Below, in pieces: positions 28,603 to 31,644 of a stretch of 64,000 bases of DNA. The stretch spans positions 1 through 64,000 of the forward strand of contig JAHQWJ010000147.1 of NCBI GenBank assembly GCA_029856125.1, given 5' to 3'. Origin of the DNA: Promethearchaeia archaeon. Lineage in GTDB: Archaea; Asgardarchaeota; Lokiarchaeia; Sigyniarchaeales; SOKP01. Under the pieces are notes generated by a model, which saw only the letters and a program-made list of their open reading frames with translations, ran no database searches and was not told the DNA's origin. Each line of letters opens with the position of its first letter. The stretch's first letter is position 1. A program made the position numbers and the translations under genes.

Positions 28603-29238
28603 ATGACAGAATTAAAAATAGGTGCTATCGCTAGTGGTTCGGGCTCTAATTTAGAAGCTATAATTAAAGCTTGTAAAACTGGTATATTGAAAAGTAAGGC
28701 AAGCGTAGAAATTCTTATATGCAACAAAGCGGGAGCATTTTGTATGGAGCGAGCAAAAAATCATAACATTCCCTATGAATTAATTGAGTCTAATAAGTAT
28801 CTACATCTTCCAAGGGAAGAATATGACAAAAAAATGATAGAGGTGTTTCGAAAGTATAACTGCGAATTAATCGTTTTGGTAGGCTACATGAGATTAGTAA
28901 GCGGAGTGTTTATTGAAGCCTTTAATGGTAATGTTATGAATATTCATCCCGCTTTGTTACCTTCGTTTAAAGGGATGCACGCACATAGAGATGTGTTAGA
29001 TTATGGGGTCAAAGTTTCCGGATGTACGGTTCATTTTGTTGATGATCAATCGGATCACGGCCCAATTATTATCCAAAAATGCGTTCCTGTTTATGATAAT
29101 GACTCTGAAGATACTTTAGGAGCAAGAGTTTTAGAATGGGAGCATAGAATATTCCCTAAAGCGATCGAGCTATTTTGTAATAAGAAGCTGCATATAGAAG
29201 AAAGACTTGTTATCATAGATGGCGAATTTGAACTATAG
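28603..29238 (+). CDS. purN: Phosphoribosylglycinamide formyltransferase
   Basis: ASGSGSNL, GYMR, NIHPALLPSFKG, GCTVHFV, DHGPII.Q. Confidence 0.96.
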   Translation: MTELKIGAIASGSGSNLEAIIKACKTGILKSKASVEILICNKAGAFCMERAKNHNIPYELIESNKYLHLPREEYDKKMIEVFRKYNCELIVLVGYMRLVSGVFIEAFNGNVMNIHPALLPSFKGMHAHRDVLDYGVKVSGCTVHFVDDQSDHGPIIIQKCVPVYDNDSEDTLGARVLEWEHRIFPKAIELFCNKKLHIEERLVIIDGEFEL

Positions 29239-29256
29239 CCAAGCTACATTTATTAT

Positions 29257-29363
29257 GCGGGAAAATGAATGAATTCGGTGAAAGCTCTGACCCAACTGAA
29301 AGTATGGTGGATTCCATAACTTAATGAAGAAGATCTTGAGTAATGAGAATTTTCATTTCCCGC
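29257..29363 (+). ncRNA. Box C/D guide sRNA; D guide predicted to target C34 of tRNA-Leu(CAA)
   Basis: Long terminal stem; degenerate box C GTGAAAG at 29278; D' CTGA at 29296; hairpin; C' ATGAAGA at 29324; D ATGA at 29343. Both box pairs fold as K-turns and the guides are about 12 nt. Confidence 0.72.
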
Positions 29364-29454
29364 TCCTAATTTCCTTAAATAACCCTAAAATTTTAATCAA
29401 ATCACTCATGGTAAGTAATATATTATTAACAATAAACAAGAGAAAAAAGTTAAG

Positions 29455-31644
29455 ATGCCACGTCGGAAGGAGATTTCAGAAATTCTGAATATGATGGAAA
29501 AAACGCAGAATATTAGAAACATTGGATTTGTTGGACATATCGATCACGGAAAGACAACACTTTCTGATTCGCTTCTGAGTGAGGCGGGTTTATTATCACC
29601 CGATTTAGCTGGCGAGGCTCGTGCTTTAGATTATTTAGAGGAAGAACAAGCTCGTGGGATCACTATGAAATCTACCAATATTTCATTATACTACGAAAAA
29701 TCACTAGAAGACCATGAGCCATTTCTAATAAACCTCGTCGATACGCCTGGACATTTGGATTTCAGTGGAAAGGTAACTCGCGCCCTAAGATTAATAGACG
29801 GGGTTGTGGTAGTTGTTGATGCTGTTGAAGAAATAATAACACAATCAGAGACTGTGATTAAACAAGCTTTACAGGAAGGTGTAAAACCAGTTCTGTATAT
29901 TAATAAAGTAGATCGCCTTATCCGAGAGTTAAAGCTAACAGATGAACAAATAAGAAAAAAATATTCAAGAATTATTAAAGATTTCAATACGCTTATTAAA
30001 AGATACGCTGACAAACCCTTCAAAAAAGAGTGGCAAGTATCTCCGGCAGATGGAAACGTTGCTTTCGGTTCCGCACTTCACAAATGGGGTTTTACTTTGC
30101 AACTATTAGAAGATAACGATTTAAAATTTTCTGATATTAGAACTCGTTATCAGAAAGAAACTTATACCAAAGAGAGTTATGCTGATTTAGCAGTTTATTT
30201 TCCAATACATAACGCTATATTAGAAATGGTAGTTGACCATCTCCCCAATCCTAAAGAAGCGCAAGCTTACAGAATTAGAAAGATCTGGGAAGGCGATTTA
30301 GAATCGGATATTGGAAAAGCGATGATAAATTGTGATCCCGAAGGACCCACAATTATTTGTTTAAGCAAGGTACAAGTAGATAAACACAGTTTGGTAGCGA
30401 CGGGTAGAATTTTTTCTGGAATGTGTTCGATGAAAGAAGACGTTTTTTTGGTAAGAGAAAACAGTTATGATACAATCCGAAGGACAGCTCTCTTTATGGG
30501 ACAAAGAAGGGAACAAGTCGAACAAATTCCTGTTGGTAACATTGTAGCAGTTGAAGGATTGAAGCAATTACAGAGCGGTGAAACACTAATCGCCAAAGAG
30601 TTTGCCAGTTTAATGGTTCCGTTTGAAGATGTTAAATATGTATCTACTCCTGTAGTAACCGTTTCAATCGAGCCGGAGTATTTACGAGAACTGGATAAAA
30701 TGAAGGAACTAATTGAAAACTTATTAATAGAAGACCCAAACCTTAAATTTGAAATTAACGAGGAAAACGGTGAATTCTTGCTTTCGGGAGTTGGCCCCCT
30801 ACATCTTGAAATCACAGCAAATGAAATAGAAAAACGAGGGATTAATGTTTCTATTTCAGAACCACGAGCTGTATTTAAAGAATCTTGTAAGTATGATTCT
30901 CCCCTTGTCACCGTAAAATCGCAAAACAACAAGAATTCTCTTCAACTTAAAATTGAAAGAATAAAGGATAAGACTTCAAGGTTTTTACAAACTCATGATT
31001 TAGCAACAATTAAACCTAAAGCGAGATTGAAAGAACTATTTGAGGAACGCACAGAATTAACATTAGAGGAAATACACACCTTCTGGAGGTATTTTGACAA
31101 TATTAATCTGCTCTTTTATAAAAAGGATGAAGAAATTGCCCTCACTTATAAAAAAATTATAGAAGAAATCGTTACTAAGATTCTTTCAAACGGGTTTTTG
31201 TGTGGCGAAAAAATTACGGGAATTAAAGTTAAAATTAAAGATTTAACCATCGCTGAACTTAACGAAGAAAACGCTTATACAGAATTATCCACATTGTTCT
31301 ACGATGCCATCAAAAAGGCTTTAAATCAAGCTGAACTAATCCTTCTTGAGCCTATTTATCACACAGTTATTCAATTACCCCCCGATTACGTAAAAAATGC
31401 CCTTTCTTTAGCTTCAAAGTATTCTGCTAAAATAAAGAATGTTAACCAAGAAAAGGATTACCAAGCTATTATTGATATGTTATTCCCAGTAAGAAATTCG
31501 ATAAAGTTTGCTGAAGATATTCGCTCGTCTACTTCAGGAAAAGCATTCTGGCAGAATGAGTTTCACTCCTTCATGGAAGTTCCTGGTCAAGAAGCTAAAA
31601 AAATAATTAGCGATTTAAGATTTAGTAAAGGACTTTCATGGTAA
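29455..31644 (+). CDS. Elongation factor 2 paralog (aEF-2p type) lacking the diphthamide histidine
   Basis: GHIDHGKTT, RGIT, DTPGH and NKVD G-motifs. Domain IV reads DLTIAELNEENAYTE where HEDxxHRG is expected. Confidence 0.88.
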   Translation: MPRRKEISEILNMMEKTQNIRNIGFVGHIDHGKTTLSDSLLSEAGLLSPDLAGEARALDYLEEEQARGITMKSTNISLYYEKSLEDHEPFLINLVDTPGHLDFSGKVTRALRLIDGVVVVVDAVEEIITQSETVIKQALQEGVKPVLYINKVDRLIRELKLTDEQIRKKYSRIIKDFNTLIKRYADKPFKKEWQVSPADGNVAFGSALHKWGFTLQLLEDNDLKFSDIRTRYQKETYTKESYADLAVYFPIHNAILEMVVDHLPNPKEAQAYRIRKIWEGDLESDIGKAMINCDPEGPTIICLSKVQVDKHSLVATGRIFSGMCSMKEDVFLVRENSYDTIRRTALFMGQRREQVEQIPVGNIVAVEGLKQLQSGETLIAKEFASLMVPFEDVKYVSTPVVTVSIEPEYLRELDKMKELIENLLIEDPNLKFEINEENGEFLLSGVGPLHLEITANEIEKRGINVSISEPRAVFKESCKYDSPLVTVKSQNNKNSLQLKIERIKDKTSRFLQTHDLATIKPKARLKELFEERTELTLEEIHTFWRYFDNINLLFYKKDEEIALTYKKIIEEIVTKILSNGFLCGEKITGIKVKIKDLTIAELNEENAYTELSTLFYDAIKKALNQAELILLEPIYHTVIQLPPDYVKNALSLASKYSAKIKNVNQEKDYQAIIDMLFPVRNSIKFAEDIRSSTSGKAFWQNEFHSFMEVPGQEAKKIISDLRFSKGLSW

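Follow-up and report, generated by a model that had tools for sequence, protein, structure and literature searches.

Organization of the locus

The window (the whole stretch of DNA that was analyzed, 64,000 nucleotides long) belongs to a metagenome-assembled genome of a Lokiarchaeia archaeon, whose assembly amounts to 3.69 Mb in 153 contigs with 32.7% G+C. The features that concern this work all lie on the forward strand.

28603-29238, + strand: upstream gene, purN-type formyltransferase (PF00551, E 2e-52); 18 nt separate its stop codon from the sRNA
29257-29276, + strand: 5' strand of the terminal stem, outer GCGGGAAAAUGAA, UG bulge, inner AAUUC; pairs with 29347-29363
29277-79, + strand: GGU bulge of K-turn 1 (3 nt)
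29278-84, + strand: box C, degenerate, GUGAAAG
29285-29295, + strand: D' guide spacer, 11 nt, with the core UCUGACCCA at 29286-94
29296-99, + strand: box D', CUGA
29300-29322, + strand: hairpin between D' and C', AAGU AUGG ... CCAU A ACUU
29324-30, + strand: box C', AUGAAGA, 6/7 of RUGAUGA
29331-42, + strand: D guide spacer, 12 nt, with the core GAUCUUGAGU at 29332-41
29343-46, + strand: box D, degenerate, AUGA
29347-29363, + strand: 3' strand of the terminal stem, GAAUU, then UUCAUUUCCCGC
29455-31644, + strand: downstream gene, EF-2-family GTPase (EF-2 paralog; Pfam GTP_EFTU, EFG_III, EFG_IV, EFG_C); starts 92 nt after the sRNA

Analysis of the sequence confirmed the element at 29257-29363 (+) as a single-copy, double-K-turn box C/D-type sRNA. 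A guide RNA of this type had been proposed by the first-pass annotation; all of its elements are present at the coordinates given there, and the same guides occur in Asgard orthologues, most of them with canonical C and D boxes. One part of the proposed layout had to be revised: with box C placed in register, the D' spacer (29285-95) is 11 nt long and not 12. The assignment of the flanking genes as purN and an EF-2 paralog is confirmed by Pfam, which identifies a purN-type formyltransferase and an EF-2-family GTPase. purN is also found upstream of the sRNA in genome G042, and linkage to the EF-2 paralog extends to genomes G050 and G055 of family f2; this linkage is absent in the loci read from other Asgard families.

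The terminal C/D motif contains the stem, the GGU bulge and tandem sheared G.A and A.G pairs, which can be read from the window sequence as G29280.A29346 and A29281.G29345; its boxes fit the consensus poorly, at 4/7 (GUGAAAG) and 3/4 (AUGA). The internal boxes C' and D' (AUGAAGA and CUGA) form a second K-turn, closed by a covarying hairpin that converts the usual K-loop into a closed K-turn. The spacing of 11 nt from C to D' and 12 nt from C' to D is constant in homologues, two of which have one extra base. The sRNA strand folds better than 199 of 200 shuffled sequences (z = -3.0). A search of Rfam at gathering thresholds returned no match to the sRNA, and permissive thresholds gave nothing usable; the best sub-threshold match is SNORD25, with 22.3 bits against the 39 required (E 0.019). 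An open reading frame at 29324-29488, which overlaps the 3' half of the sRNA, was rejected as coding, as on our reading the compact orthologues stop within a few codons and the flanks differ by indels. A third helix proposed by RNAalifold, in which the two guides pair with each other, shows no covariation and was taken as an artefact.

Machinery, expression and other guide candidates in the host genome

The genome contains genes for proteins of the box C/D RNP, including two L7Ae-family genes and the following adjoining pair.

Contig C63, 87950-88624: Nop5
Contig C63, 88752-89417: fibrillarin, adjoining Nop5

In one metatranscriptome, short contigs cover 29233-29357, in a kind of library that can contain DNA. 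A contig of another metatranscriptome, whose library may likewise contain DNA, spans 29362-29612 and so runs from the last bases of the sRNA into the EF-2 paralog. Between the sRNA and that gene, at about 29376-29391, lies a conserved AAAUAA-CCUAAAA block that looks like a promoter. Together the contigs are weak evidence that would fit a small RNA alongside an mRNA that is either separate or processed. RNA runs X15 and X17 were given no weight because they are probably DNA, and regions left uncovered in X16 and X20 were not counted as absence.

The genome appears to make little use of the textbook sRNA form. The strict canonical dual-guide pattern RUGAUGA...CUGA, searched across the whole genome, has one match, compared with 0-1 in shuffled sequence, and 10-mers antisense to rRNA in a box context number 63 in this genome against 58 in the control, which is no excess; the longest rRNA-antisense 10-mer matches fall in coding-looking sequence. 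The repertoire of rRNA guides, if there is any, is thus not of textbook form. The assembly has an SSU rRNA gene (contig C84, 102706-104197) followed by a tRNA-Ala gene; an LSU rRNA gene was not found in it. About 30 tRNA genes were detected, many with introns. One ARAGORN prediction, a tRNA-Leu(GAG) on contig C142 (71200-72958) with a 1666-nt intron, is probably spurious.

Conservation and covariation among Loki homologues

By BLAST the sRNA is present as one copy in about 31 of 36 genomes of the same genus. With a covariance model it was detected in 83 of the 102 genomes sampled from the family; its position relative to the EF-2 paralog, about 90 nt upstream, is the same in 67 of 70 loci. The alignment shows invariant boxes and guide cores, with variation at guide positions 1 and 12; the stem of the D'-C' hairpin, when each homologue is folded singly, is maintained through quite different sequences (UUGAUAA/UUAUCAA, GUUAAGC/GCUUAAC, GUGGG/CCCAC). 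Invariant boxes and guide cores, variable outermost guide positions and a hairpin that is repeatedly rebuilt form the pattern that is expected of a guide RNA.

Statistics for the stem and the K-turns were taken over 64 distinct homologues. The terminal stem is 92-97% paired, with six pairs changed on both sides, a number that none of 500 shuffles reached. K-turn 1, formed by boxes C and D, has the 1b.1n G.A pair in 64/64 homologues and the 2b.2n A.G pair in 43/64; its 3b.3n pair covaries between A-U (37) and G-C (19), and 4b.4n between A.A (26) and C-G (23). In some relatives the second sheared pair is U.G, C-G or G.U instead, and the terminal motif may therefore not be a standard K-turn everywhere. 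Box D reads AUGA in 33 of the 64, GCGA in 17 and UUGA in 5. K-turn 2, formed by C' and D', is better conserved: G.A is present in 64/64, A.G in 55/64 and 4b.4n G-C in 63/64, and the 3b.3n pair covaries between A-U (50) and C-G (6). Box D' is CUGA in 54/64 homologues and CGGA in 8/64, the latter accompanied by a compensating C in box C'.

A separate observation concerns the outer part of the terminal stem, whose core GGGAAAUGA/UCAUUUCCC (29257-29268 / 29352-29363) is near-invariant across the family, whereas the hairpin covaries freely. This near-invariance suggests sequence-specific recognition, as a processing or binding site, beyond the demands of pairing.

Distribution across Asgard families

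The pair of guide cores was searched for in 400 Asgard genomes with a pattern consisting of an exact UCUGACCC, then 20-90 nt, then GAUCUUGAGU. It occurs in 152 of them, compared with 2 for the reversed-pattern control, and the carriers belong to families f1, f2, f9, f20, f21, f27, f28 and others; by the same search it was not found in f13, f16 and f19. The carriers, which belong to several Asgard families, include single-contig genomes, possibly of cultured strains.

The Loki form of the RNA has a length of about 100-107 nt and a terminal stem of 17-20 bp. Outside Loki families f1 and f2 the orthologues, of which 12 were read, are compact: the linker from D' to C' measures only 7-12 nt and forms no hairpin, box C is GAUGAUGA-like in most, and box D is CUGA in f9, in f21 and in one f20 genome and variable among the remaining orthologues read. 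The existence of compact orthologues with the same guides settles the kind of RNA as a box C/D sRNA, and the fact that most of them have canonical boxes identifies the long stem, the D'-C' hairpin and the degenerate C and D boxes as a Loki elaboration of an ordinary sRNA. The first-pass remark that this RNA is longer than ordinary archaeal sRNAs is upheld by this comparison.

Match of the D guide to the tRNA-Leu(CAA) anticodon loop

When both guides were matched against tRNA and rRNA genes, the D guide found tRNA-Leu(CAA), the D' guide found the intron of tRNA-Met(CAU), and one weak LSU rRNA site was obtained in addition. The target of the D guide is the following gene.

Contig C84, 129967-130088: tRNA-Leu(CAA) (locus L032), with an intron of 36 nt at about 32/33, a non-canonical place

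The mature anticodon arm of this tRNA reads GGUGGA-CUCAAGA-UCCAUU. The D guide forms 10 contiguous Watson-Crick base pairs with A31-C40, the fifth nucleotide from box D (N+5) falls on C34, and the calculated duplex energy is -15 kcal/mol. Shuffled versions of the 10-mer core have an exact complement in the tRNA set in only 30 of 20000 trials, and the target is invariant in relatives. The annotated antisense relationship with N+5 on C34 thus stands, in the form of a 10-bp duplex within the RNA's own genome; its claimed extent of 12 nt does not, since the target reads G-ACUCAAGAUC-C and pairing is confined to guide positions 2-11, or 10 of 12 positions. For the same reason the predicted 11-nt string ACTCAAGATCT is absent from the gene as written, which reads ...GATCC where the duplex had been over-extended, and its 10-bp core is present. 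Exact 12-mer targets in the genome are chance matches in coding regions, because the actual duplexes of the two guides are 10 and 9 bp long.

The ten target bases are contiguous even in the unspliced tRNA-Leu(CAA) because the intron ends in AC, and methylation of C34 could therefore either precede or follow splicing. From the perfect duplex, Cm34 is inferred to be made on tRNA-Leu(CAA) by this guide. A tRNA-Leu(CAA) with the same loop is also found in f16, f24 and f25, families in which the guide pair was not detected.

Two side observations were made on the introns of this tRNA. The 3' part of the tRNA-Leu(CAA) intron contains UCUUGAG, a 7-mer identical to part of the D-guide core, so that the anticodon loop would be masked through the same pairing that the D guide would use. 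In sister genus g18 (L247 of G119 and L257 of G098, around position 1500) two introns in tRNA-Leu(CAA) bracket exactly ACUCAAGAUC, leaving a micro-exon of about 10 nt that corresponds to the bases bound by the D guide; a rigid tRNA-Leu pattern misses the g18 genes because of the second intron.

The D' guide matches a conserved block in the tRNA-Met(CAU) intron

For the D' guide, a tRNA D-loop had been suggested as the target. No D-arm matches this guide; its match is instead to a conserved intron block of a tRNA-Met(CAU) gene.

Contig C2, 10132-10270: tRNA-Met(CAU) (locus L031), with a D-arm intron and a second intron, of 33 nt, at the canonical position 37/38
Contig C2, 10215-10224: D' target block UGGGUCAGA, within the canonical intron

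The core UCUGACCCA has one exact 9-mer complement in the tRNA set, namely UGGGUCAGA in this tRNA(CAU) intron; a complement in the tRNA set was found for shuffled cores in 233 of 20000 trials. The duplex has a calculated energy of -16.3 kcal/mol and places N+5 on the intron G directly 5' of UCAGA. A further match to the D' guide, at position 674 of contig C59, includes one G.U pair and is not tRNA-like. A D' guide aimed at tRNA position 34 was rejected by reasoning, as it would need G32 and G33 in the anticodon loop, which is not a tRNA feature. The tRNA in question is not the initiator, which is encoded on contig C84, and is unlike tRNA-Ile(GAU); by likeness it looks like elongator tRNA-Met, and it may also be tRNA-Ile2. 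An intron-bearing tRNA-Thr(GGU) gene lies about 90 nt upstream of it.

The block GGGUCAGA is the sole invariant part of an otherwise variable Met(CAU) intron. It is retained in five genomes of the same genus (L057-L060, L063) in which a single intron lies 5' of the anticodon, and it is also present in distant Loki genomes. In broader comparison the intron block is found in the sRNA-bearing families f1, f2, f9, f20, f21 and f27, and is at noise level in f16, f19, f13 and f31, families without the sRNA. Comparison of 29 genomes having both partners shows 8-11 contiguous base pairs between D' guide and intron, with covariation at the edges of the duplex. The pair between guide position 2 and the base that precedes GGG in the intron is A-U in the majority of Loki genomes, but C-G in G142, G143, G255 and G257-G259 (families f9, f20 and f21), and across families guides reading UCUGACCCC go with introns reading GGGGUCAGA. 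Guide position 11 is mismatched in most genomes, and is G-C in G068, G069 and G255 and A-U in G257 and G258.

The literature searched contained no report of a trans-acting guide with a target in a tRNA intron, nor one of C/D sRNAs from Asgard archaea. The D' guide, as judged from complementarity and covariation, would thus be a trans-acting guide with a conserved, covarying target inside a tRNA intron, and such a guide appears to be new.

Discussion

In the mechanism proposed here, L7Ae, Nop5 and fibrillarin would assemble on both K-turns of a dual-guide sRNA. The D guide would place the wobble C34 of tRNA-Leu(CAA) at the methylated fifth position, and the D' guide would pair with the intron block of pre-tRNA-Met(CAU), placing the intron G at the fifth position from box D'; the latter contact would presumably act before splicing. 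Apart from what the intron contact is for, we consider it probable that these elements hold jointly: two guide duplexes, their conservation across families with covarying edges, the derived nature of the Loki form and the formation of Cm34 on tRNA-Leu(CAA).

With respect to the purpose of the intron contact, the reading that comes nearest to an even chance, while falling somewhat short of it, is that the D' guide acts on the intron alone, either by methylating the G that lies 5' of UCAGA or as a chaperone of folding, splicing or the fate of the excised intron, and has no role at C34 of tRNA-Met. A C/D RNP by default methylates the N+5 nucleotide of any well-paired target, and here that rule is joined by a D' duplex with the intron that is perfect and covaries, and by the stronger conservation of the C'/D' K-turn relative to the C/D one. 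Moreover, on our reading the UCAG of the type A intron pairs with CUGA as the 3' side of a small hairpin, so that binding of the guide would open this hairpin, and the Met loop is mismatched to the D guide at two central positions. Against action on the intron alone, we know of no use for a tRNA intron that is methylated or opened, and no other guide for Met C34 was detected. Nor does this reading need two features described below, namely the distance of 8-16 nt between anticodon and block in all families and the AUC with which most introns start and by which the D match is kept on the precursor.

These features are those that an alternative purpose, a tether, would account for. In this proposal the D' guide would clamp pre-tRNA-Met, and the D guide would then methylate Met C34 despite its two mismatches, in a manner dependent on the intron. 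Between the D guide and the Met anticodon loop, 8-9 of 11 positions match; there are two central mismatches, the duplex energy is -8.6 to -9.9 kcal/mol and N+5 is again on C34. The distance between the two Met sites, counted from the sequences, is 12 nt for an intron on the 3' side of the anticodon and 13 nt for one on the 5' side; the duplex ends bridged by this linker come together at the C'/D' turn in the former case and at the C/D turn in the latter, and across families the linker from anticodon to block measures 8-16 nt. Most Met introns begin with AUC, which preserves the match to the D guide on the precursor; the introns of G042 and G046 have no AUC start, and their match between the D guide and pre-tRNA-Met is consequently shorter. 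A separate perfect guide for Met C34 was not found in the Loki genome by a search of limited sensitivity. The fit to the Met loop, the confined linker and the lack of another Met C34 guide suggest that the intron serves as a handle by which one RNP handles two tRNAs. Two central mismatches would weaken methylation, as indicated by work in vitro. On balance, an intron contact that tethers pre-tRNA-Met and so enables the D guide to methylate Met C34 is a tentative reading with perhaps a third of the case behind it. That one C/D RNP would serve both tRNA-Leu(CAA) and elongator tRNA-Met, with the Met intron kept phylum-wide as its docking site, is a shade more doubtful again and as a whole rather unlikely. 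Other purposes of the contact, or none, take up what these two readings leave.

The remaining alternatives dispute the dual-guide interpretation itself. The first of them holds that the true D' target is a site in LSU rRNA, AUGGGUUAGAAU near position 1488 in two genomes of the same genus, and that the match to the intron is secondary. rRNA is the usual target of archaeal C/D sRNAs, and this site offers 8 Watson-Crick pairs and one G.U over guide positions 2-10 with N+5 on a G. By our calculation, however, a chance match with at most one G.U is expected for about 7% of guides against some 4.9 kb of rRNA. The site is readable in those two genomes only, the genome of the window having no LSU gene in its assembly, and the UCUGACCCC/GGGGUCAGA covariation is explained by the intron, whereas an rRNA site would need to change in step with the guide. 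Neither guide has any site in SSU rRNA. An LSU target is considered improbable.

Still less probable is that the element acts mainly in cis, as a K-turn leader of the EF-2 paralog mRNA recognized by L7Ae or another protein. L7Ae reportedly binds archaeal mRNAs, 67 of 70 loci, and family f2 as well, have the element at a constant distance of about 90 nt from the EF-2 paralog, and one RNA contig reads from 29362 into the gene. However, in the loci that were read from other Asgard families the RNA with the same guides has no EF-2 paralog beside it, and since this synteny is limited to f1 and f2, a purely cis-regulatory role is unlikely; further, the invariant parts of the element are two guides that match tRNAs, the conserved AAAUAA-CCUAAAA block between sRNA and gene is on our reading promoter-like, and roles as guide and leader could coexist. 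The least probable alternative, a conserved structured RNA that resembles a C/D guide and whose complementarities to tRNAs are coincidental or functionless relics, could appeal to the degenerate C and D boxes, to the lack of an Rfam match above threshold and to the indirect nature of the evidence for expression and methylation, and is countered by guide cores that are invariant throughout the phylum while their flanks vary, by the rarity of equally good matches in shuffles, by covarying duplex edges and by orthologues with canonical boxes.

Comparison of the dual-guide RNA with known systems shows which of its properties have precedents. Guided Cm34 of tRNA-Leu(CAA) is of a kind already known from Pyrococcus, where, according to a later account that summarizes work of 2001, four sRNAs serve C34 of tRNA-Leu(CAA), Leu(UAA), Met and Trp (PMC7994747). 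The Asgard RNA shares with these the antisense relationship to the Leu(CAA) anticodon loop, the fifth-nucleotide rule acting on C34 and the box C/D architecture. It differs in that the Pyrococcus system uses four RNAs for four tRNAs whereas the Asgard RNA combines a Leu guide with a Met-intron guide, and in that the Loki RNA, at about 100-107 nt, has a long stem, a hairpin and degenerate boxes, the Pyrococcus RNAs being compared here by their description only.

A second precedent is sR-tMet of Haloferax volcanii, a box C/D RNA reported by Joardar et al. (2011) and described, in two papers that cite this work (PMC4033218 and PMC6601510), as methylating C34 in the precursor of elongator tRNA-Met. 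Both systems involve a trans-acting C/D guide that acts on an intron-containing precursor of elongator tRNA-Met. sR-tMet is said to use one continuous guide that spans the exon into the intron; in contrast, the Asgard RNA contacts the intron by a separate guide, 8-16 nt from the anticodon, and its anticodon-facing guide perfectly matches another tRNA, that for Leu. In archaeal pre-tRNA-Trp the intron is itself a box C/D guide, for Cm34 and Um39. There, too, a tRNA intron is tied to C/D-guided methylation of the anticodon arm before splicing; the difference is that the Trp intron is the guide, whereas in the Asgard case the guide is encoded elsewhere and the intron is what it targets.

In human cells SNORD97 and SCARNA97 guide Cm34 of elongator tRNA-Met (PMC6601510). 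Guided methylation of the same nucleotide is what the tether would achieve in Asgard archaea, with the differences that the human RNAs belong to eukaryotic RNPs with no intron contact described, and that the helper role of the Asgard intron contact is hypothetical. Accessory pairing beside a weak guide is known from yeast to aid methylation by eukaryotic snoRNAs.

If the tether is correct, docking for modification would be a selective reason for an archaeal tRNA intron, and the contact would parallel, in archaea, the accessory pairing of eukaryotic snoRNAs. The persistence of archaeal tRNA introns would thereby acquire a concrete hypothesis, in which the intron is kept as a handle for modification. 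The Loki version of the RNA would represent one step of a compact archaeal sRNA toward a longer, snoRNA-like form with its pair of guides fixed, which raises a testable question about the lengthening of sRNAs in the lineage nearest to eukaryotes.
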